This document shows, piece after piece, positions 993 to 16,333 of a DNA stretch of 61,641 nt. The first letter of the stretch is position 1. Each line of letters opens with the position of its first letter. The stretch lies in the IMG/VR virus record IMGVR_UViG_3300045988_050566, one strand, 5' to 3'. This stretch comes from a virus. The notes below the pieces were generated by a model, which was not told where the DNA came from, ran no database searches, and saw only the letters and a program-made list of their open reading frames with translations. A program made the translations under genes and the position numbers.

Positions 993-1205
993 CTATCGGT
1001 ACTCTTTTCCTGTTTCTTTGTCCTTGAGGGTAATCCTCCCAACAACCTCGAATCCGGCCAGCTCCGCCGTCTGCTTCATCACCGGGATAAGCCTGCTGAT
1101 TACCGCGAGGCGTTCTGCGGCCTCCTGCTGCCGCTGCTCCTTGCGGATATTGCTCATGGCCTCTCCGGGTGTGGGGTCGCTGTAGCCCTCTGCGTTCTTA
1201 TACAT
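993..1205 (-). CDS. hypothetical protein (70 aa)
   Basis: ORF track. Its ATG overlaps the stop of the upstream small ORF (AATGTATAA). No motif recognised. Confidence 0.6.
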   Translation of the reverse strand: MYKNAEGYSDPTPGEAMSNIRKEQRQQEAAERLAVISRLIPVMKQTAELAGFEVVGRITLKDKETGKEYR

Positions 1206-1368
1206 TGCCGCCCTCCCGTTCGTCCGGGTGCCACCAACAATGCCCGATGTGGTATGTGTTGTCGCACTTGTCGCAGCCGTCTGCTCCCTCGAGGCAGTCG
1301 TCGGTGCCTCGCAGGTCGCAGCTCACGCAAATGCACTCCCGGCAATGCTTATCCATCTCGTTATACAT
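1198..1368 (-). CDS. small Cys-rich protein (56 aa, below ORF-track cutoff)
   Basis: Own translation: MYNEMDKHCRECICVSCDLRGTDDCLEGADGCDKCDNTYHIGHCWWHPDEREGGNV. GGAGGGAGG lies upstream of the ATG at 1368, and the stop is coupled to the next ATG. Confidence 0.55.
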   Translation of the reverse strand: MYNEMDKHCRECICVSCDLRGTDDCLEGADGCDKCDNTYHIGHCWWHPDEREGGNV

Positions 1369-1380
1369 GGGCCTCCCTCC

Positions 1381-2076
1381 TTACGTCGCGGGTTGAAGTG
1401 CCTCCGCCGCTGCGTCCATCGCTGCCTCGGTCATTTCCGCCCGCTCGCTCTCAAGCCGCCCGGCCAGCCGCTTCACCTTTTCGTCCACGGCCCGCTGCAC
1501 GTCCTTGCGGTTCCCGTAGAACATGAGGAGCTGGGTGAGCATGATGATAACGTCCGCCATCTCCTCCGCGATGTTGCTCATGGCCTTGTCGTAGCTGGGC
1601 TTATCCTTGGCCCGGTGCCGCTTGACGATGGCCTTTGTCAGCTCGGACATCTCCTCGATTGCCATTTCCTCCTGCGCCCCGGAGCCGTAGGTGTCGATGG
1701 CCTGTTGCAGCACCTCCGGCCGCATGGTGGTCGGGAGGGCGTGCGTCTCGTAGGCTTTCAGCCATTCCCGAAGCTCTGCCGCGCCCCATGCCGTTTGGTA
1801 GAACAGGGCGATAACTCCGTCCCAGTCGTCCGTCCCGTACTGTAGGTTGTCCGCGAGGATTTCGTCGAGCGTTTCGCCGTCAAGCTCCTCCATGTCCTGT
1901 GTGAGGCCGTCCTCTCCTGCGTGCTTCTCGTAAATCTCCCGCACAAGGTCGAGGAGAGGGATTTCCCGCTCGAAGTCCCTGTACCATGCCTCTCTGTCCT
2001 TGACGAACATCATGTTATGGGCCAGTTCCCACGCGGCCATGTCGCTGGTGTCGTCGCAAATTTTCCGTAATTCCAT
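1381..2076 (-). CDS. MazG-like nucleotide pyrophosphohydrolase domain protein (231 aa)
   Basis: The C-terminal half has the paired acidic helices of MazG/all-alpha NTP-PPases: AQEEMAIEEMSELTKAIVK ... NIAEEMADVIIMLTQL. Confidence 0.75.
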   Translation of the reverse strand: MELRKICDDTSDMAAWELAHNMMFVKDREAWYRDFEREIPLLDLVREIYEKHAGEDGLTQDMEELDGETLDEILADNLQYGTDDWDGVIALFYQTAWGAAELREWLKAYETHALPTTMRPEVLQQAIDTYGSGAQEEMAIEEMSELTKAIVKRHRAKDKPSYDKAMSNIAEEMADVIIMLTQLLMFYGNRKDVQRAVDEKVKRLAGRLESERAEMTEAAMDAAAEALQPAT

Positions 2077-2089
2077 GTTGCTGCCCTCC

Positions 2090-3109
2090 TCATTCTCCGA
2101 TGGTGACGTAGGCGTTCCCGCGCTTGTTCAGTTGCAGGTCTACCGGGTTCCCGCATTTCAGGCACGGGAAGTCGAAAACCTCCTCCGAGACGTTCGTCTT
2201 GTACTTGAACACGCTGCCGCACTTACATTTCAGGTACGCGGGTTTCAAGTCGCGCAGCTCTGTCCTGTGCCCGCACTCGCATTTCGAGTAGGAGGTCGGT
2301 GCCTTTGCGCAAAATCCCCGGAGTTTTCCACACTTTTCGCACTTGACGAGTAGAAAACCTTTGTAGAGCTGCGGCCCCTCCGGGAGGTCTGGCGTGACGT
2401 TGATTTTCCCGTCGTCCGGCACGGTCTCCTGCGTGTCCTTAACGTCTACGGCCCTGAAATTGCCGAACATACGCTCGACGCGGCTCTGCGGCTTGGGTTT
2501 AGGCTCCGGGGCCTTGGTCGGCTCCTGCGCCACGCTGGGAGGCGCGGCGGCGGGTTCCTGCGGTTCCTCCCCGGCGGCGTACTGGATGGCCCGCTGCATG
2601 AGGTCTGATACCCTCTCCGGCGGCATATCGAAATTCATCTCGCCAAATGGCGTTCTCATTGTGAGCTTCACAGTGTCTCCCTCCTGTATATGTATTCCAA
2701 GGCTCTTTCGGAGGGCCTTGTCTATGTTGTTGATTTCTTGCTGCGTGACGCGGCCAATGCGCCGTTGGAGCCTGCTCTTGCTCACTGTCACGATCTGCTC
2801 GCAAAGGGCGACGGACGGTTTCGGTGCCGAGCCGATGAAAACGTGCGTAGGCAGGCCGACCTTTTTCCGGGTAGTCAGGTAGACGACCTCGACGATGGGC
2901 GCAAATCTGTTCCCGATGTCGTTGCTCACGACGACCGCCGGGCGGTTTGCCGACTGCTCGCTGCCTACGGCTGCGCCCCCTACGACGAAATAGATGTCGC
3001 CCCGCTTCACACTTCCTTTCGTACCAGCAACGCCTCTTTCCCTCAATATCGCCACGGCCAGCCAATCACCATCGAAAGGTTGTATATGTACTGGCCGCAC
3101 CGCACGCAC
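2090..3109 (-). CDS. MazF/PemK-like endoribonuclease toxin domain fused to a Pro-rich linker and a Cys-rich zinc-ribbon C-terminus (up to 339 aa; true start probably internal, about 3010-3046)
   Basis: KRGDIYFVVGGAAVGSEQSANRPAVVVSNDIGNRFAPIVEVVYLTTRKKVGLPTHVFIG...ALCEQIVTVSKSRLQRRIGRV matches the MazF/PemK fold signature. The C-terminus has CEKCG, CECGH, CKCG and CLKCG motifs. Confidence 0.8.
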   Translation of the reverse strand: MRAVRPVHIQPFDGDWLAVAILRERGVAGTKGSVKRGDIYFVVGGAAVGSEQSANRPAVVVSNDIGNRFAPIVEVVYLTTRKKVGLPTHVFIGSAPKPSVALCEQIVTVSKSRLQRRIGRVTQQEINNIDKALRKSLGIHIQEGDTVKLTMRTPFGEMNFDMPPERVSDLMQRAIQYAAGEEPQEPAAAPPSVAQEPTKAPEPKPKPQSRVERMFGNFRAVDVKDTQETVPDDGKINVTPDLPEGPQLYKGFLLVKCEKCGKLRGFCAKAPTSYSKCECGHRTELRDLKPAYLKCKCGSVFKYKTNVSEEVFDFPCLKCGNPVDLQLNKRGNAYVTIGE

Positions 3110-3219
3110 ACGTCATACTTGCCCCAAAAGCCCTGCTTTTTCATGCCCCGGACGCTCCCGGTGTGGTGGATAGATGGGTGGCGGGCTTTCTCCGCCTCTG
3201 AAAGTCTTTCGTACCTCAT
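3043..3219 (-). CDS. small ORF (58 aa) directly upstream of and overlapping the MazF-like ORF; antitoxin role is speculative
   Basis: Own translation: MRYERLSEAEKARHPSIHHTGSVRGMKKQGFWGKYDVCVRCGQYIYNLSMVIGWPWRY. It has an ATGA overlap with the stop of the upstream gene (3216-3219). Confidence 0.35.
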   Translation of the reverse strand: MRYERLSEAEKARHPSIHHTGSVRGMKKQGFWGKYDVCVRCGQYIYNLSMVIGWPWRY

Positions 3220-3548
3220 GCTCCCTCTGCCTCCAATTCCGCCGCAAAAAGGGCCTCCGCAAGCTCCTTGAGCATTGCGTCAATGTCCTCCGCGTCCTTT
3301 ACCAGTTCCTTGATGGAGGGAACTCCTGCGACCTTGTTGCGCCTCGCCTCCACCCACATCTCAATATGCTCCTCTTGGTCGAAGTGGGCCGCGTACTCCT
3401 TGACGTTCTCAACGAAGTTCTCCTCGCTAACGGTAAAAGAAAAGTCCTCTCCGGCAGGGGAGTGTTTTTCCAGCTCGATATATCCATCTCCACCGTTGAG
3501 CCAGTACCAGCCCAACCGCTCGCAAATATCTCTGTATCGTTCGTTCAT
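3216..3548 (-). CDS. hypothetical protein (110 aa)
   Basis: ORF track. Stop/start coupled to its neighbours. Confidence 0.65.
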   Translation of the reverse strand: MNERYRDICERLGWYWLNGGDGYIELEKHSPAGEDFSFTVSEENFVENVKEYAAHFDQEEHIEMWVEARRNKVAGVPSIKELVKDAEDIDAMLKELAEALFAAELEAEGA

Positions 3549-3745
3549 AACTGCGCCTCCTCTCGTACCGTGTGTTCAGAAAACACGAGGTCATACCATT
3601 CCTTTCCACCGGCCCCGCAGTTCGCGCAATTCCAAGAATAAAAATAGCTCTCGTCTTGTATTCCTGAATTGCCGTAATCTAATGCGGCTTTCCCGCACAA
3701 GGGGCACACGCCAGCCTCGTTGTGCTTGTGTTTCTGTCTGCTCAT
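3545..3745 (-). CDS. small zinc-ribbon protein (66 aa)
   Basis: Paired CPLCG and CANCG motifs. ATGA-type overlap with the next gene. Confidence 0.65.
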   Translation of the reverse strand: MSRQKHKHNEAGVCPLCGKAALDYGNSGIQDESYFYSWNCANCGAGGKEWYDLVFSEHTVREEAQL

Positions 3746-6556: not shown

Positions 6557-9500
6557 TTACTCGTAAATGACCTTGCTGCCCTCCGGCGTTTTCACCACGT
6601 CCACGCTCTGCGGGAATCTCGACTTCATGGCCGGGTCGTGGGTGATCGCCATTACCTTGAGGTCGCCGTACCGCTGCTGGATGGCCTCGAGCGCGTCGCA
6701 ATACGCCTGCACGCCGGGGGCATCGAGGAATGGGGGTTCGTCAATGAACAGGAATCCAAGCTGCACCCCCGCCTTGCTGCTCTTGATTTCCGAGAGCGCG
6801 AGGATAACCGAGAGGGCCGCCTTGACACGCTCACCGCCGCTCCTGCTCATGTATGGGAGCCGCCCGGTGTCGCTGTCGTTGATAATGATGTCGAGGGTCG
6901 TGACCTCTTTCTTGCTGTTGGATTTCAGCACCTTTTCCGTCACGAACTCCACGCTCATACGCCCCTGCGACATCTGGCCGAGGATATTGGTGGCCGTCGC
7001 CTCGAATACCGGGATAATGCTGCGGATGATGTTGTGGGGAATGCCGTCCTGCGAGAACGCCTTTTTCAGCTCCTCATACCCGGCGGCCTTGCCTCCCAGC
7101 TCGTTCATCTGCTCTTGCAGCTCCGCCGCCTGCTTGCGGGCGAGGCGAATCTGCCCGAGCTTTGCCTGCAATCCGCCGATGCGGAGGGAAAGCTCCTGCG
7201 CCTGCTTCTGAACGGCCTTGACCTCTGCCTCCGCCGCGTCCACCTGCGCCTGCAATTCCTCCCTGCCGACGGTCTTGCTCTGCTCGTCGGCCAGCTCTGC
7301 GCGGGCCTCCCGGATTTCTTCCCCGATTTCCGTCAGCTCCGAGCCAAGTTCCAAAATCCGCTGGGCCGCCGCCGCTTTCTGCTCCCGCGCCACGGGGAGC
7401 TGCTTCTCCTTGTCCAGCCAGCGACTCTCCGCCAAGAGCGTCCGCTGCAGCTCGTCGTAGTCCCGGCTGTAGGCTGCTGCCTGTTCGAGCTGCTGCTCGA
7501 CCGCTGCCAGCTCCGCCCGGCCTTTGGCTGCGGTGGCCTCCGCGTCCGCCACGGACTTCTCAAGCTCCGCCGCCCGTTCTTCCAGCACGGCCAGCTCGCT
7601 CCGCTGCGCCTCGAGGCTGTTGTAATCCCGTTCGGCGGCCTCGAGGAGCCGCAGAGAGGCCCGCAGCGCGTCGATTTCCTCCGGGACGTGTTTCTTATCG
7701 TCGAAAGCCTGTTGCGCCGCAGAGAGCGCGTCTGCGTTCGTCTGGCGTAGCTTCCCGTATTCCTCCTCGAGGGAGGCGAGCGCGGCCTCCTCTCCCGGCA
7801 GCGCATCTCTGGCCGCCAGTGCGTCCGCAAGGAACTTGCACGTGGCGTTGTCCGGGGCCGGACACCCGCTGTCTTTCAGCAGCTCCACCTTGCCCTTGAG
7901 CGAAGCAATTCGCCCCTCGAGGCGCGTCTTGGCCTCCCGGTAGTCGCGCTCTGTGCGCTCTGCCTCTGCCTGCCATGTCGTGAGGTTGTCCCTCGCCGCC
8001 GTGAACTCCGGCAAGAGCTTTTCCAGCTCTATGAGCTGCGCGGTGGCCGCCTCGTACTGCTGGTGCTTCTCGGTCAGCTCTGCGGCCCGCTCAATGGCCT
8101 GCGCCAGAGGCCCAATCTTCATCAGCGTGAGGGCCGCCTTTTTCTGGCGGTTGTCCTTTGCCGCGCTCTCTGCCAGTGTGATCGCGCTCTCAATCTGCTG
8201 TTTCCGGGTGGCGAGACTGTCGTAGGCTGCCTTGCCCTTAATCAGCTCTTTTTCCCGTTCCAACAGGGTCTTGTAATGCGCCACGCCTGCGTTAATCTCC
8301 GGCTCCGCTGCGAGGATGGTCTCTGCGGCGGTGATGGTCGCCACCTGCGCGGTCTTGGCGGCCTCCTTGGAGGCCTGCTGCGCCGTGAGGGTAGTAATCT
8401 TGCTGTTGAGCTTCATCACCCGCGCCGCCGCCTCGAGCTGCGTGTTGAGCTTGACCTTGAGGGTGTCCACCTCCGCCGTCTTGCTCTCCGCCTGTTCCAG
8501 CAGCCCCTTGCGCTGCGCCTCCGCCGCCTCGATTTCGGCGGCCAGCTCCTCGCTGTCCGGCAGTCCCGCCGTCAGGGTGTCCGCCTTGTCCGCCAGCGAG
8601 CGGATGGTGCGGTTGGTGTCGGTGGCCCGGTTCGCCGCCAGCTCCTCCATGCCCCCGTAGATTCCCAGCCCCAAAATGCTGCCGAGGATATTCATGCGGG
8701 CCTCTTTGTCTGCTTGCAAGAATAGGCCGTACTGGTCTTGCATGATAAGGGCGCAGGCTTTCAGCGTCAGGCTGTCCATGCCGATGATGTTGACGATTTC
8801 CTGCTGCGTGTCCTTGAACTTCTCCTTGCTGCGGTCTACCCATTCGCCCTCAACGCACTCCGCGATGTTCAGCGTCGCCTTGCCGCTTTTCTGCCGGGTG
8901 CGGGTGACGCGGTAGAGGCGGTCGCCCAGCTTGAACGTGAACTTGATGGCCCCGCTCCGGGCCTCCGGGTCGTTGCAAATCCAGCCCGTCAGCTCTCCCT
9001 CTCGCGGCTCCTCGTAGAGCGCGTCCAGCATCGCGTCCATGAATAGGCTGCTCTTGCCTACGCCGTTGCTGCCGTTGATGGTGCAGAAGCGAATACCGTC
9101 AAAGCTGAATTTCTCCTCGCGGTAGTTGCGGTAGTTCTTGACCTCAATCTCCATCGGGACGAACAACCCCGTGTGCCGCTCCTGCGTGGCCTTTTCCGTG
9201 GCCTCCGCAATCAGGGGCCGGGCCAGTTCGACCAGCTCGCCAATGCGCTCCGGCGTGAACTCCTTTTCGGCCAAGTAGTCCGCGAGATTGCTCTCCGGGG
9301 TGCCGTCTGCGTCCATGCTCCGGCGGTCTACCGTGATGGTGATTTTCTGCGGCGTAATCTCCTGTACCCAAAAGGCTCCGACGGCGTAGAGCATATTCTC
9401 GAATACGGCGTGGTTGAACGCCTTGTTATGCTCGTCGGTGCAGTCGTACAGGACGCGGACGATTTTCCCGTTGAGGTCGTCCGCCCGGTCGAGGAAGTCC

Positions 9501-10417
9501 GCGACCTCCAATTCGCCCGTCGTAATCCCGGCCACGTCCTCGTCGTTGAGCCGGAGGGTCTTGTGCTGCCGGGTGGGGAGCTGCTGGAATGTGGACTTGA
9601 CCTCGCCGCTTCCGTCGATGTCGTGAATCCAGTAGCCGCGCTCCTGCCCCTCGTCGTTGAAATTGAGCTGGGAGATGGCCCCGCAGTAGAACGTGTTCTT
9701 GCACCCCTCGAGCTGCTGCGGGCGGTGGATATGCCCGAAACACACGAGGTCGAAGTCTGCCGCCGCCAACGTGTCGGGATAAACGACAGGTTCAAACTGA
9801 CTGAAAAAAGCCGTCTGCCCGCTCTCCATGTTGCAGCCCGTGATGGTGTAGTGCGATACCAGCACCGCCGGGGTGCCCGACTTGCACTGTGCCTTGAGGC
9901 CAATAATCATGTCCGCGATGGCCTTGGTGAATACCTCGTTTTCCTCCTCCTTGGAGAGGCCGGGGTGCTGCGCCCGGTAATACCCCCGGTCGAATCCGGG
10001 GAGGCAAGCGACCTGCACCCAGCCGTATGCCCCGCTGAAAACTTCCACCACCTGCGGCTCCGTGATGATTTTCACCTCTCCGTCGCCCTCGAACGCGGTC
10101 TTGAGCATTTCAAACTGCTGCTCGCTGTCGTGGTTCGGCGTGCCCCGCATCACCACCACCGGGCAAATGGCCGAAAGCTCCCGCAGGAACTTCACCGCCG
10201 TCTGCTGCTCCTTGAGGCCCCGGTCGCTCCATACCCGCGCCTGATGGAAGATGTCGCCCGCGATTACCGCGATGCCCGGCTTTTGTTCTCTGGCCCCCTC
10301 CACCAGTGCGTCGAGGCACTTGCAGATGTCGAGGTATCTCGCGTTCTCCCCGTTCTTCTCCGGGCCGGGGAAATTTCCGATATGGAGGTCGCCCGTATGT
10401 AAAACTCTGATCGCCAT
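6557..10417 (-). CDS. fused SbcD(Mre11)-SbcC(Rad50) nuclease/ATPase, single 1286-aa polypeptide
   Basis: N-terminus LHTGDLHIG...IAGDIFH...GHIH (calcineurin-type phosphoesterase). Walker A INGSNGVGKSSL at about residue 455, then a long coiled coil. C-terminal signature SGGERVKAALSVILALSE and Walker B FLFIDEPPFLD. Confidence 0.9.
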   Translation of the reverse strand: MAIRVLHTGDLHIGNFPGPEKNGENARYLDICKCLDALVEGAREQKPGIAVIAGDIFHQARVWSDRGLKEQQTAVKFLRELSAICPVVVMRGTPNHDSEQQFEMLKTAFEGDGEVKIITEPQVVEVFSGAYGWVQVACLPGFDRGYYRAQHPGLSKEEENEVFTKAIADMIIGLKAQCKSGTPAVLVSHYTITGCNMESGQTAFFSQFEPVVYPDTLAAADFDLVCFGHIHRPQQLEGCKNTFYCGAISQLNFNDEGQERGYWIHDIDGSGEVKSTFQQLPTRQHKTLRLNDEDVAGITTGELEVADFLDRADDLNGKIVRVLYDCTDEHNKAFNHAVFENMLYAVGAFWVQEITPQKITITVDRRSMDADGTPESNLADYLAEKEFTPERIGELVELARPLIAEATEKATQERHTGLFVPMEIEVKNYRNYREEKFSFDGIRFCTINGSNGVGKSSLFMDAMLDALYEEPREGELTGWICNDPEARSGAIKFTFKLGDRLYRVTRTRQKSGKATLNIAECVEGEWVDRSKEKFKDTQQEIVNIIGMDSLTLKACALIMQDQYGLFLQADKEARMNILGSILGLGIYGGMEELAANRATDTNRTIRSLADKADTLTAGLPDSEELAAEIEAAEAQRKGLLEQAESKTAEVDTLKVKLNTQLEAAARVMKLNSKITTLTAQQASKEAAKTAQVATITAAETILAAEPEINAGVAHYKTLLEREKELIKGKAAYDSLATRKQQIESAITLAESAAKDNRQKKAALTLMKIGPLAQAIERAAELTEKHQQYEAATAQLIELEKLLPEFTAARDNLTTWQAEAERTERDYREAKTRLEGRIASLKGKVELLKDSGCPAPDNATCKFLADALAARDALPGEEAALASLEEEYGKLRQTNADALSAAQQAFDDKKHVPEEIDALRASLRLLEAAERDYNSLEAQRSELAVLEERAAELEKSVADAEATAAKGRAELAAVEQQLEQAAAYSRDYDELQRTLLAESRWLDKEKQLPVAREQKAAAAQRILELGSELTEIGEEIREARAELADEQSKTVGREELQAQVDAAEAEVKAVQKQAQELSLRIGGLQAKLGQIRLARKQAAELQEQMNELGGKAAGYEELKKAFSQDGIPHNIIRSIIPVFEATATNILGQMSQGRMSVEFVTEKVLKSNSKKEVTTLDIIINDSDTGRLPYMSRSGGERVKAALSVILALSEIKSSKAGVQLGFLFIDEPPFLDAPGVQAYCDALEAIQQRYGDLKVMAITHDPAMKSRFPQSVDVVKTPEGSKVIYE

Positions 10418-13990: not shown

Positions 13991-14019
13991 TACACAAAAC
14001 GGGGCAAAAATGCTATGAT
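13991..14019 (+). promoter_or_regulatory. candidate repressor-maintenance promoter: TACACA-17-(TGc)TATGAT extended -10
   Basis: Read on the + strand upstream of the RBS GGAGG (14032-14036) and ATG 14045. GGGGCAA motifs at 13919, 13980 and 14001 flank it. Confidence 0.45.
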
Positions 14020-14044
14020 TAAATTTACTGCGGAGGTGCTATCC

Positions 14045-14650
14045 ATGCAAAACTTTTCCAACCGTCTGATTTCCCTGCGTAAAGAGCGGGGCCTCACCCA
14101 AGAGGACTTGGCAAACCTAATCCACAAAAAGCGTTCCACCGTCTCCGGCTACGAGACCGAGGGCAAGGAGCCTGACCTCGATACGGTCTGCTGGCTGGCG
14201 AATTACTTCGACGTGTCCACCGACTACCTGCTGGGCTACTCCGACGAGCGCAACCACGTTGAGCAGGTCTTTTTCAACGACAAGGTGAACTTTGAGCGTC
14301 ACTACAAGAATCTGCCCGCCGAGCTGCGCCCCGTCGTCTCCAAGTGCTTCGACAGCTTCTACCTGCTGCTGTCCCGTGATATGCAGCTCGCCCGGCCTGA
14401 ACGCCTCCGGGTCTACGAGGAGCTGCTTCACACCCTCCAATCCCAGCGGGCGGACATTCGCAAGGCAATCGAGGCCTCCGGCGGTGCTGTCACCGACCCC
14501 GTTGCCCTCTCCGACCTCATGGCTATGCAGGGCCAGCTCAAAAACGCTGTGGCCGCTCTGCTGGACAAGCTCATGCAGGCCGACATGGAAATCGCGTTCA
14601 ACATCAAGAGAGACGAAGCCGCCGGGTACAAAAGCGGGTCGGCAATGTGA
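14045..14650 (+). CDS. CI-like repressor, XRE-family HTH with helical C-terminal domain (201 aa)
   Basis: MQNFSNRLISLRKERGLTQEDLANLIHKKRSTVSGYETEGKEPDLDTVCWLANYFDVSTDYLLG. GGAGGTG 6 nt upstream. The track start 14015 lies inside the -10 box. Confidence 0.85.
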   Translation: MQNFSNRLISLRKERGLTQEDLANLIHKKRSTVSGYETEGKEPDLDTVCWLANYFDVSTDYLLGYSDERNHVEQVFFNDKVNFERHYKNLPAELRPVVSKCFDSFYLLLSRDMQLARPERLRVYEELLHTLQSQRADIRKAIEASGGAVTDPVALSDLMAMQGQLKNAVAALLDKLMQADMEIAFNIKRDEAAGYKSGSAM

Positions 14651-14707: not shown

Positions 14708-16333
14708 ATGCGAAATTATCCACCCCTTTCCTCCGCCGAGGAATACTGTATGTACCTCCGCAAGTCCCGCGTAGACATCGAGGCCGAGGCCCACGGCGAG
14801 GGCGAAACGCTGGCCCGCCATGAAAAGCTCCTGCTGGAAGTCGCCCGGCGCGATAAGCTCAACGTCACGCAGATTTACCGCGAGGTCGTCTCCGGCGAGA
14901 CCATCGCCTCCCGGCCCGTCATGCAGCACGTCCTCCAAGAGGTCGAGCAAGGCCGCTGGGCTGGCGTTCTCGTCGTCGAGGTCGAGCGTCTGGCCCGTGG
15001 CGACACCATCGACCAAGGCATCATGGCGCAGACGTTCAAGTATTCCGGCACCAAAATCGTCACCCCGCTCAAGGTCTACGACCCCAACAATGAGTACGAC
15101 GAGGAGTATTTCGAGTTTGGCCTGTTCATGTCCCGCCGGGAGTATAAAACCATCAACCGCCGCTTGCAGCGTGGCCGCCTTGCCGCCGCCAAAGAGGGCA
15201 AGTGGGTCTCCGGTGTGGCCCCCTACGGCTACGAGAAAATCCGGGTGCCGAACGATAAGGGCTGGACGCTGCGCCCGGTCGAGGCCGAGGCCGATATTGT
15301 CCGCTTCATCTTCCGGCTCTACACCTCCGGCGAGGAGGCCGAGGACGGCGAGGTGAAAAAGCTGGGGACATACTCGCTCGCCGTGCGTCTCGACCGCATG
15401 GGCGTTACCCCTCCGGGCGGCGCGCCCTGTTGGAGCAGCACCACGATACAGTCCATCCTCGAGAATCCCGTCTACGTCGGGAAAATCCGCTGGAACGTCC
15501 ACAAGACGAAAAAGCGCGTTATCGGCAGCTCCGTCCGCGTCGAGCGGTACACCGCCCCGGAGGGCGAGCAGGTCTTTGTCGATGGCCTGCACCCCGCCAT
15601 TGTGGACGAGGCCGTTTTTCTCGCGGCCCAAGAGCTGATCGCTCAAAAAGGCCCTCCGCCTGTTCAGGCGGCCAACACTGTCACCAATCCTCTGGCCGGG
15701 GTTCTCGTCTGTGGCAAATGCGGCCGCAGCATCGTCCTCCGCCCCAATCCAACCTACGGCGGTATGCTCATGTGCCCTAACCGCGCTTGCGATAACGTCG
15801 GCTCCAAGTACGACATCGTGGAGGAGCGTCTGCTGCAAGCCCTCGCCCAATGGCTGGAAGATTACCGCCTCGAGTGGTCTGACCGTCCTCCCTCCGAGGA
15901 GCAGGCCCTCATGGAGCTAAAAGCCAAGTCCATCCGCAAGGCCCAGTCCGAGGTGGAGACGCTTCAACGCCAGCTCGAGCGCACCCACGACCTCTTGGAG
16001 CAGGGGGTCTACGATACCGAGATGTTCCTCGCCCGCTCCCGGTCTATCACCGGGCGAATCAACGCCGCCCAAGAGAGCATCGCCTCCCTAACCTCCGAGC
16101 TGGCCGAGGAGGAGGCCCGCGCCGCCTCCCGCCGGAATATCGTTCCCAAGGTCGAGAAGCTGCTGGAAGTCTACTCCGCGCTCCCCTCTGCGCAGGCCAA
16201 GAATGATATGCTCAAGGGCGTGCTGGAAAAGGTCGAGTACACCAAGCTCCACCGTTCCGGCCGCAATGGGCCGTTCGATAACTTCGAGCTGCTGCTGTAC
16301 CCCAAGCTGCCGCCCTCCGGCCTCGGGGAATAA
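14708..16333 (+). CDS. int: large serine recombinase (integrase), 541 aa
   Basis: Resolvase catalytic domain YLRKSRVD...RPVMQHVLQEVEQGRWAGVLVVEVERLARGD, recombinase domain, zinc ribbon CGKCGRS...CPNRACDN, and a C-terminal coiled coil. Confidence 0.95.
   Translation: MRNYPPLSSAEEYCMYLRKSRVDIEAEAHGEGETLARHEKLLLEVARRDKLNVTQIYREVVSGETIASRPVMQHVLQEVEQGRWAGVLVVEVERLARGDTIDQGIMAQTFKYSGTKIVTPLKVYDPNNEYDEEYFEFGLFMSRREYKTINRRLQRGRLAAAKEGKWVSGVAPYGYEKIRVPNDKGWTLRPVEAEADIVRFIFRLYTSGEEAEDGEVKKLGTYSLAVRLDRMGVTPPGGAPCWSSTTIQSILENPVYVGKIRWNVHKTKKRVIGSSVRVERYTAPEGEQVFVDGLHPAIVDEAVFLAAQELIAQKGPPPVQAANTVTNPLAGVLVCGKCGRSIVLRPNPTYGGMLMCPNRACDNVGSKYDIVEERLLQALAQWLEDYRLEWSDRPPSEEQALMELKAKSIRKAQSEVETLQRQLERTHDLLEQGVYDTEMFLARSRSITGRINAAQESIASLTSELAEEEARAASRRNIVPKVEKLLEVYSALPSAQAKNDMLKGVLEKVEYTKLHRSGRNGPFDNFELLLYPKLPPSGLGE

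Follow-up and report, generated by a model that had tools for sequence, protein, structure and literature searches.

What does a temperate phage gain from a MazF-type toxin that comes with no visible antitoxin and is fused, in one reading frame, to a zinc-ribbon module? MazF is among the best-studied bacterial toxins, whereas the antitoxin-less MazFs of phages are merely annotated as "growth inhibitors" and are unstudied. We analysed such a gene in the IMG/VR virus record IMGVR_UViG_3300045988_050566, where it had been singled out in an earlier note made from the sequence. The window referred to below is the whole 61,641-nucleotide (nt) stretch, and the genes around the fusion all lie on its minus strand (-). 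Going beyond the earlier note, our comparisons indicate that the C-terminal module exists independently as a widespread phage gene and that, inside the fusion, it has kept its own Shine-Dalgarno (SD) sequence and start codon. The reading that we favour, at roughly even odds (a probability of about 0.5), is that a minor long isoform brings an antitoxin-less ribonuclease (RNase) to the place where the zinc ribbon acts, and that a major short isoform does a job independent of MazF.

A MazF domain in frame with a Cys-rich module

The open reading frame (ORF) at 2090..3109(-) is 339 amino acids (aa) long when counted from a GTG at 3109, the frame being open up to that position. GTG 3010, which is preceded by GAAAGGAAG, is the sole canonical in-frame start past the stop of an upstream 58-aa ORF. 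It gives a long isoform of 306 aa (2090..3010) with the N-terminus MKRGDIYFV, and residues are numbered from it throughout. Alternative starts for the long isoform are TTG 3046, which overlaps the TGA of the 58-aa ORF, and ACG 3022. The layout described in the earlier note, a MazF-like ORF that continues without a stop into a linker and a Cys-rich domain, was confirmed. The MazF/PemK endoribonuclease domain (residues 2-106, 2693..3007) is followed by a 7-residue junction, a domain of ~35 aa that we call Mid (residues 114-148, 2567..2671), an acidic linker rich in Pro, Glu and Ala, and a Cys-rich domain of 93 aa that is predicted to be a double zinc ribbon (residues 214-306, 2093..2371). A short linear motif, PQSRVERMFGNFR (residues 174-186, 2453..2491), lies within the linker.

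By sequence and by its catalytic residues, the N-terminal domain belongs to the MazF/PemK family. It matched the Pfam family PF02452 over profile positions 1-109 of 109 (E 3.3e-25, 88.9 bits against a cut-off of 23.1) and phrog_1936 of PHROGs, "MazF-like growth inhibitor" (2e-29). In alignments with PDB entries, the MazF structures of B. anthracis and B. subtilis were matched at ~1e-18, the B. subtilis enzyme being ~42% identical to the first 106 residues. The catalytic pair of B. subtilis MazF, R25 and T48, corresponds to R23 and T46 in the alignment, and the GSEQ, PTH and CEQ motifs are present. Among fused homologues, R23 is kept in 37 of 38 and T46 in all 38, together with most of the RNA-contacting motifs. 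The identification made in the earlier note was therefore borne out, and its worry that the catalytic residues might be lacking did not materialise. The domain is also under purifying selection, with nonsynonymous divergence (pN) of 0.1-0.27 between divergent loci against synonymous divergence (pS) of 0.6-0.8, the latter near saturation; the first 28 codons are included in this pattern. On these grounds the domain looks like an active RNase. It should be noted that AlphaFold2 (AF2) modelled the MazF part of the monomer from a shallow alignment and with a confidence (pLDDT) of only ~50 and a predicted template modelling score (pTM) of 0.34. The top Foldseek matches of this poorly folded model were still MazF (4mdx, E 0.014), at a root-mean-square deviation of ~12 Å.

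A search of 5.8 billion proteins returned 208 homologues, and the best 120 clusters were examined. In 97 of these 120 clusters at least 90% of the 306-aa query was covered and PF02452 was present, with identities that range from 34-42% to 99%. The nearest homologue belongs to a cluster of 408 sequences, and related clusters add hundreds more. Hidden Markov models (HMMs) of all four modules matched one ORF at 23 loci (L004-L024, L066 and L067) in scans of IMG/VR and GTDB genomes. The junction sequences of fused loci vary in their indels and in the codon phase of an internal SD sequence, and the reading frame is always kept. The in-frame fusion is thus real and conserved, far beyond what chance would give.

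These data bear on two ways in which the fusion could be trivial. One of them, a sequencing or assembly frameshift that joined two separate genes, was raised in the earlier note. Apart from being possible a priori, it can point to a few relatives that are frameshifted or truncated (P0090, P0103, P0101). However, the ORF of L004, an independent IMG/VR contig, is 100% identical to that of the window, and the frame is kept in dozens of divergent contigs from different studies, which rules out an artefact for all practical purposes. The other is neutral read-through, in which adjacent mazF and Mid-zinc-ribbon genes lost the intervening stop without any function arising from their fusion. If so, many junctions should contain a stop or be out of frame. 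Among the fetched loci, however, we found no stop between an intact MazF and an adjacent Mid-zinc-ribbon gene, and the frame survives in the 97 clusters despite junction indels and changes in SD phase. We therefore consider neutral read-through improbable, even though the Mid-zinc-ribbon gene keeps its own start, tends to fuse to whatever lies upstream of it (MazF, DUF4406, dUTPase or a helix-turn-helix (HTH) domain) and belongs to a pair of which each half can be lost separately.

In phage and prophage databases the architecture is recurrent, and it is common in gut phages. The record titles of fused loci name Oscillospiraceae, Lachnospiraceae, Ruminococcus and Clostridiaceae. A toxin captured as the N-terminal extension of another gene is a recurrent feature of abundant human-gut Clostridia phages. 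Databases label the fused proteins merely as MazF toxins, and the NCBI label of one member is just "PemK/MazF family toxin". Our literature searches found no description of a MazF/PemK zinc-ribbon fusion, of a nested antitoxin of this sort or of a Mid-SRVERMFG-zinc-ribbon family, in agreement with the earlier note, which knew of no described equivalent. One fused locus, a prophage in an Oscillospiraceae metagenome-assembled genome (L067), has a second, bare MazF ORF (2083-2484, HMM match 8e-25) 1.5 kb upstream of the fusion.

Predicted start sites of the short and the long isoform

Inside the long ORF of the window, an internal SD sequence, AGGAGGGAG at 2685-2677 (2677..2685(-)), which is read there as Q-E-G, lies ahead of an in-frame GTG at 2671-2669. 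This GTG (2671..2669) opens a nested ORF of 193 aa (2090..2671(-)) that comprises Mid, the linker with its motif, and the zinc ribbon. In 20 of 21 distinct fused loci, an AGGAGG or GGAGG precedes, by 5-12 nt, an ATG or GTG that is in frame and encodes the first residue of Mid; the remaining locus has AAAGGAGAG. Met or Val occupies this residue in 44 of 45 aligned homologues. The background of GGAGG in these purine-rich ORFs is 4.9 per kb, with a chance of ~4% per locus of landing at this place. Depending on the lineage, the SD sequence is encoded as Gly-Gly, Gln-Glu-Gly, Gln-Glu-Glu or Lys-Gly-Glu, that is, in different codon phases. Its retention across these phases implies a constraint on the nucleotides and not on the encoded amino acids.

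The product of the nested ORF also occurs as a stand-alone protein in many phages, and relatives of the window show how it can be set free. MazF is missing from L025 through a clean deletion (~490 nt by comparison with L010, 99.8% identity downstream) that spares the SD sequence and the ATG, which now overlaps the stop of the upstream gene (ATGA). In L081-L083, which come from three samples and are 98% identical to the window, a change of TGC to TGA at Cys70 truncates MazF, and the gene caller calls the 193-aa nested ORF as a separate gene from the same GTG (P0019). The locus therefore has, at the level of sequence, what is expected of an in-frame nested gene: an SD sequence and start at proper spacing, nucleotide conservation, and a short product that stands alone elsewhere. 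The mRNA probably yields the 193-aa Mid-zinc-ribbon protein besides the long MazF-Mid-zinc-ribbon isoform.

In-frame nested genes with an internal SD sequence and start are known from Tn5 (transposase and its inhibitor), T7 (gp4A/4B), lambda (C/Nu3) and phiX174 (A/A*). The arrangement proposed here resembles them in that an internal ribosome-binding site and an in-frame start would give a C-terminal isoform. Unlike in those systems, the short isoform is the ancestral stand-alone gene and the N-terminal extension a captured toxin domain.

An RNA hairpin is predicted at 2640-2740(-) of the window (minimum free energy -22.6 kcal/mol, z = -2.9), in which CCCUCC, part of Ala-Leu-Arg codons 25 nt upstream, pairs with the nested SD sequence. 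Some relatives have similar, shorter CCUC:GAGG pairings in a register that is not shared. The idea of a hairpin that sequesters the SD sequence of the nested start was dropped, because the pairing is short and out of register among relatives.

The start of the long isoform is of a different kind. In five lineages (L010, L012, L013, L019-24 and L022/23), the stretch that leads from the nearest preceding stop to the KRGD motif is without an ATG, GTG or TTG. What these lineages do have is a strong SD sequence followed 5-8 nt on by ACG or ATA, ~15-45 nt upstream of the KRGD codons. The same column is ATG in L014 and L018 and TTG in L067; the window has an ACG at 3022..3020. In E. coli, AUA initiates at 1-2% of the level of AUG, and the codon class that contains ACG at 0.1-1% (bioRxiv 10.1101/063800). 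The MazF ORF is nevertheless likely to be translated in the ACG and ATA lineages, because dN/dS, the ratio of nonsynonymous to synonymous substitution rates, is 0.09 across MazF between L012 and L013, both of the ACG type, and because gene callers, for want of a start codon, open many database entries at the internal Val28 ("MSNDTGN..."; e.g., P0081, with 551 member sequences). Within the clade of the window, the position of GTG 3010 is GTT in L005 and L006, so the start there would be TTG 3046 or ACG 3022.

From these start codons we infer that the long, RNase-bearing isoform is a minor product relative to the short one in many lineages, and near-cognate start codons are possibly used here naturally to dose a toxin. 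The locus bears on how in-frame nested genes set isoform ratios, as well as on whether a toxic product is dosed by near-cognate initiation.

The zinc-ribbon module and the proposed roles of the two isoforms

AF2 predicted Mid as a beta-hairpin (strands 114-120 and 123-129) followed by an amphipathic helix (131-145), with a pLDDT of ~60-68; the conserved sequence TPFGEMNFDM...QRAFQYAAG belongs to this domain. The linker is predicted to be disordered. In its motif, SRVERMFG, the F and the G are invariant and the R is nearly so across all architectures. A clamp-binding type of motif was considered and is not claimed here, because SRVERMFG is without the conserved Gln. The zinc-ribbon domain was modelled with high confidence (pLDDT 92-95) as nine beta-strands with two predicted Cys4 sites. 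Its Cys columns are invariant: four pairs, C224/C227 (CxxC), C244/C246 (CxC), C262/C264 (CxC) and C283/C286 (CxxC), and a ninth conserved Cys, C234. All four of the CxxC-type pairs reported in the earlier note are therefore present, but two of them are CxC and not CxxC. The zinc-ribbon domain is basic (isoelectric point, pI, 9.1), whereas Mid and the linker are acidic.

No family of Pfam, PHROG, NCBIfam or PADLOC covers the C-terminal module, and an hmmsearch against the PDB together with a permissive Pfam scan matched the zinc-ribbon module to just generic zinc ribbons (Rpo12/RpoP, eS27, TFIIS). A profile of Mid, motif and zinc ribbon, on the other hand, retrieved 844 representative clusters at 50% identity, 670 of them at E <= 1e-10. 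The best 150 of the 844 clusters are mostly 170-220 aa long and have their N-terminus at Mid. Where the module is not fused to MazF, MazF is rarely close by; it lies within 4 kb in 1 of 54 fetched loci (L072). The core of motif and zinc ribbon has other N-terminal partners, namely DUF4406, which is nucleoside deoxyribosyltransferase-like and fused in several divergent clusters (P0140, P0147, P0150-P0156, P0226, P0293), a dUTPase (P0263), an Xre-type HTH domain (P0229, P0253) and a transmembrane helix. Mid-zinc-ribbon is thus an ancestral stand-alone early phage protein, from a large phage family that is mostly without MazF. This uncharacterised Mid-SRVERMFG-double zinc ribbon family is recurrently fused to enzymes of RNA or nucleotide metabolism. 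Because the basic double zinc ribbon is found time and again attached to RNA or nucleotide enzymes and to HTH domains, it suggests a nucleic-acid- or machinery-binding adaptor or tethering module.

The favoured reading can be set out as follows. By sequence, one gene is nested in frame within another here, as part of the early replication and recombination operon of a temperate phage that infects gut Clostridia. A single phage clade has a gene of the MazF family directly upstream of the Mid-zinc-ribbon gene, and the stop codon of this upstream gene is lost. The mRNA can therefore encode a long MazF-Mid-zinc-ribbon isoform of 306-318 aa as well as the original 193-aa Mid-zinc-ribbon protein. 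The short isoform would be made from the retained strong SD sequence and GTG or ATG, and the long one, from a weak start, would be the minor product. MazF would act as an antitoxin-less RNase during the lytic cycle, in host shut-off or in the processing of phage transcripts. The fusion would tether a small dose of this RNase to the target of the zinc ribbon, most plausibly nucleic acid or the replication or expression machinery, and the free short isoform would keep the module's own, MazF-independent role.

T4 RegB offers a precedent for part of this scheme, and so do the orphan MazF-like growth inhibitors of other Firmicute phages. RegB is an early endoribonuclease with a RelE/YoeB-like toxin fold, has no antitoxin and uses ribosomal protein S1 as a cofactor. 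The mode of action proposed for the MazF of the window, an antitoxin-less RNase of toxin fold in the early lytic cycle, is similar. However, RegB belongs to another fold family, has no fused targeting domain and shows no homology. The locus is a tractable case of how phages may use toxin-fold RNases without an antitoxin.

Five points weigh against the tethered-RNase reading. First, Foldseek searches of the PDB and BFVD with two models of the zinc-ribbon module gave nothing at E <= 0.001, the best matches being human Shiftless and spliceosomal Yju2 at E 0.1-0.5. Second, L015-L018 have a good SD sequence and ATG for the long isoform, so a low dosage of that isoform is not universal. Third, UACAU, the site cut by B. 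subtilis-type MazFs, which are the closest characterised ones, is not depleted on the phage sense strand (37 observed against 49 expected). The phage thus shows no sign of protecting itself by avoiding the motif, though the actual cleavage site of this enzyme may differ; the idea of self-immunity through UACAU avoidance in phage transcripts was dropped. Fourth, a simple and crude promoter scan found no promoter- or terminator-like signals that set the fusion gene apart, from which expression with the early lytic genes, and not in lysogens, is most likely; the scan being crude, expression in lysogens may still occur. Fifth, toxin-antitoxin logic would likewise predict a strong internal start beside an attenuated start for the toxin.

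A UACAU is found in the window at 2694..2690(-), in Gly-Ile-His codons 5 nt upstream of the nested SD sequence. Most fused loci have it at the same position, ~5-10 nt before the nested SD sequence, and some lineages have UACAC, UACAG or UACCA. If this MazF cuts that UACAU, the MazF coding part would be parted from the nested cistron.

The last of the five points leads to an alternative in which the single ORF works as a toxin-antitoxin-like switch. Mid and the linker would restrain MazF in cis and the nested 193-aa isoform would do so in trans; the zinc ribbon would possibly be a sensor, and the RNase would be freed once some signal eliminated or titrated the short isoform. Parallels would be fused toxin-antitoxins such as CapRel or EzeT, or the transposase and inhibitor of Tn5. 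Such a switch would make sense of the nested ORF as the only gene invariably linked to MazF in the clade. It would also fit an asymmetry with the inhibitor in excess, given a perfect SD sequence and AUG or GUG for the short isoform against a weak start, ACG or ATA for the long one, as well as the loss of MazF with retention of the nested gene in L025, L068 and L081-83. The short distance of ~7 residues between MazF and Mid, and the acidity of Mid and the linker beside a MazF domain with a pI of 10.5, are in its favour too. The same holds for the fusion of MazF and Mid found with a divergent, low-G+C branch of Mid-zinc-ribbon (L003-like), again with an internal Met (P0108, P0198).

However, Mid-zinc-ribbon occurs mostly in phages without a nearby MazF and is fused to unrelated enzymes, so it is not a dedicated antitoxin. 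In L090, which represents a cluster of 30 sequences, MazF and Mid are joined straight to RecU without the motif, the zinc ribbon and the MazG-like gene that otherwise follows, and in L091 the zinc ribbon is split off by a frameshift. The zinc ribbon, at least, is therefore dispensable for carrying MazF. Other phage MazFs also lack an annotated MazE-type partner, a lytic-phase gene needs no antitoxin, and AF2 gave no docking of MazF and Mid, the MazF part being poorly folded. For the same reason, the docking of the C-terminal module on MazF in the AF2 monomer was set aside as uninformative. We consider the switch unlikely, and think no better of its extended form, in which ACG, AUA or weak starts set the toxin dose and the zinc ribbon decides on the release of MazF. 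The earlier note's idea of a cis-regulatory domain is possible, but it is weakened by the natural variants that have no zinc ribbon. Since both halves are lost separately in nature (L025, L068 and L081-83 have lost or silenced MazF), neither strictly depends on the other. A further rearrangement is seen in P0146 (7 member sequences), where Mid and the motif are joined to the C-terminal two-thirds of the MazG-like protein by a deletion that removes the zinc ribbon and the N-terminus of that nucleoside triphosphate (NTP) pyrophosphohydrolase.

Neighbouring genes and known systems

Scans with Pfam, PHROGs, NCBIfam and PADLOC found no SpoVT/AbrB, ribbon-helix-helix or other antitoxin family on the neighbouring ORFs, in line with the earlier note, which had seen no MazE-like antitoxin. 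With neither an antitoxin gene nor a dedicated operon, the locus does not qualify by its sequence as a type II toxin-antitoxin module of the MazEF type. The upstream 58-aa ORF (3043..3219(-)), which the earlier note had put forward as the only candidate partner, is a conserved, real gene but no partner of the fusion. It ends with TGA at 3045-3043 and overlaps the stop of an upstream 110-aa ORF (ATGA). Its counterparts in relatives, at 71-98% identity, come without exception after the 110-aa ORF, and where there is one at all it is 0.4-2.3 kb away from the MazF fusion. The gene directly upstream of the fusion is of ~8 unrelated kinds among relatives. As the 58-aa ORF travels with the 110-aa ORF and the upstream neighbour of the fusion varies, we ruled it out as an antitoxin.

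The downstream gene (1381..2076(-)) encodes an all-alpha, MazG-like NTP pyrophosphohydrolase of 231 aa that matches phrog_2245 (9e-34), the Pfam MazG match being below threshold (17 bits against a cut-off of 22). The earlier note saw in it an echo of the mazE-mazF-mazG order of E. coli. However, the MazG-like gene tracks the zinc-ribbon gene: it directly follows that gene in most related loci, including L025 and L068, which are without MazF, and in L090 it is lost along with the zinc ribbon. Since it adjoins the zinc-ribbon gene regardless of MazF, the resemblance to mazEFG is probably phage-lineage synteny, and a functional echo is not supported.

The fusion gene sits in a leftward operon, separated from its neighbours by gaps of 13-15 nt. 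The co-directional genes run from an SbcCD-like protein of 1286 aa through a Lin1244-type replisome organiser, a DnaC/IstB-like loader, a DNA methyltransferase and small ORFs to the MazF fusion and the NTP pyrophosphohydrolase. A relative at 49% identity has the same gene order, which continues there to the single-stranded DNA-binding protein (SSB) and RecU. Facing this operon are the markers of a temperate phage, an Xre repressor (14015-14650(+)) and a large serine recombinase (14708-16333(+)), ~10 kb downstream of which the fusion gene lies. The placement in an early operon that the earlier note had assumed was thus upheld, as an early replication operon of a temperate phage.

Among known systems, MazEF/EndoA-EndoAI (ydcDE of B. 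subtilis, MoxXT of B. anthracis) has the same MazF/PemK domain and the same catalytic Arg and Thr. Here, by contrast, there is no MazE and no autoregulated two-gene operon, and a 200-aa C-terminal module is added in a phage early operon. The orphan phage MazFs of PHROG 1936 (FP_Lagaffe gp50, FP_Brigit gp83, the NatCom phages and Lactobacillus phage Semele) belong to the same subfamily at 41-52% identity. They, too, are located among or beside genes for replication or late regulation, and no antitoxin is annotated for them. The MazFs of NatCom_24345, Javan405 and the strictly lytic Semele (Herelleviridae) are bare proteins of 116-126 aa, and those of FP_Lagaffe and FP_Brigit carry unrelated tails of ~60 aa. 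No annotated MazE-type gene was found near the MazF of NatCom_24345, Semele, Javan405, Lagaffe or Brigit. Unlike the fusion of the window, none of these orphans has the Mid-motif-zinc-ribbon module or a nested start.

A second recurrent context of phage MazFs was seen in Coprococcus phage NatCom_24345 (L084, 1001-1486) and Streptococcus phage Javan405 (L086, 995-1486), where a protein of 161-163 aa is encoded 8 nt upstream of the bare MazF. The two proteins are 36% identical and have a C-terminal HTH, and they may be late-gene regulators.

Fused single-chain toxin-antitoxins are also known, such as CapRel SJ46, a toxSAS protein whose C-terminal pseudo-zinc-finger is antitoxin and sensor, and EzeT, of the zeta type. 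They resemble the fusion in having the toxin in one chain with, in CapRel, a C-terminal zinc-finger-like domain, and could serve as a model of cis-regulation. They differ in that they belong to other toxin families and are host or prophage defence proteins, and the C-terminal module of the window is an independent protein family. CapRel is mentioned in PMC10440598. In RAZR (PD-T7-4), a Cys4 zinc ribbon and a toxin-type HEPN RNase are combined in one chain (PMC13017515). However, its domain order is reversed, its RNase is HEPN and not MazF, and its role is in bacterial abortive infection, where phage ring proteins activate it; neither PADLOC nor Foldseek gave a sequence or fold match between RAZR and the fusion.

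Such proteins raise the alternative that the fusion is an anti-phage or abortive-infection effector of the prophage, in which the zinc ribbon would recognise some part of a superinfecting phage and switch MazF on, as in RAZR or CapRel. The phage is temperate, as its serine recombinase and Xre repressor indicate, single-chain defence proteins with a zinc finger and an RNase exist in the form of RAZR, and host MazF is known to restrict phages in Bacillus (PMC10769878). However, the gene is tightly packed among the co-directional genes of the early replication operon, a long way from the immunity region, and no promoter-like site is close to it; PADLOC defence models gave no match. The presumed sensor is mostly a stand-alone early phage protein that is also fused to dUTPase or DUF4406, and a MazF of the same family is found in the strictly lytic phage Semele. 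A role in defence is thus quite improbable, and an early lytic role of a tethered RNase is the reading that we retain.

Other features of the window were noted in passing. The SbcCD-like gene (6557..10417(-)) is a single ORF of 1286 aa in which a Mre11/SbcD-type metallophosphatase is combined with a Rad50/SbcC-type AAA/SMC ATPase, and relatives have it in the same place. Small putative zinc proteins abound in the early operon, and two of the ORFs that flank the region of the fusion are Cys-rich: a 66-aa ORF (3545..3745(-)) with two CxxC pairs and a weak Lar-like PHROG match, and a 56-aa ORF (1198..1368(-)) that has numerous Cys and His residues and matches no family. Finally, several pentamers are strongly avoided over the whole window, counted on both strands. 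GGACC/GGTCC was observed 0 times against ~120 expected, CCAGG/CCTGG 0-2 times against ~57, GAAGG/CCTTC 4 times against 76, CTGAG/CTCAG 2 times against 54, and GAATC/GATTC 6 times against 47, a pattern that is consistent with the avoidance of restriction sites.

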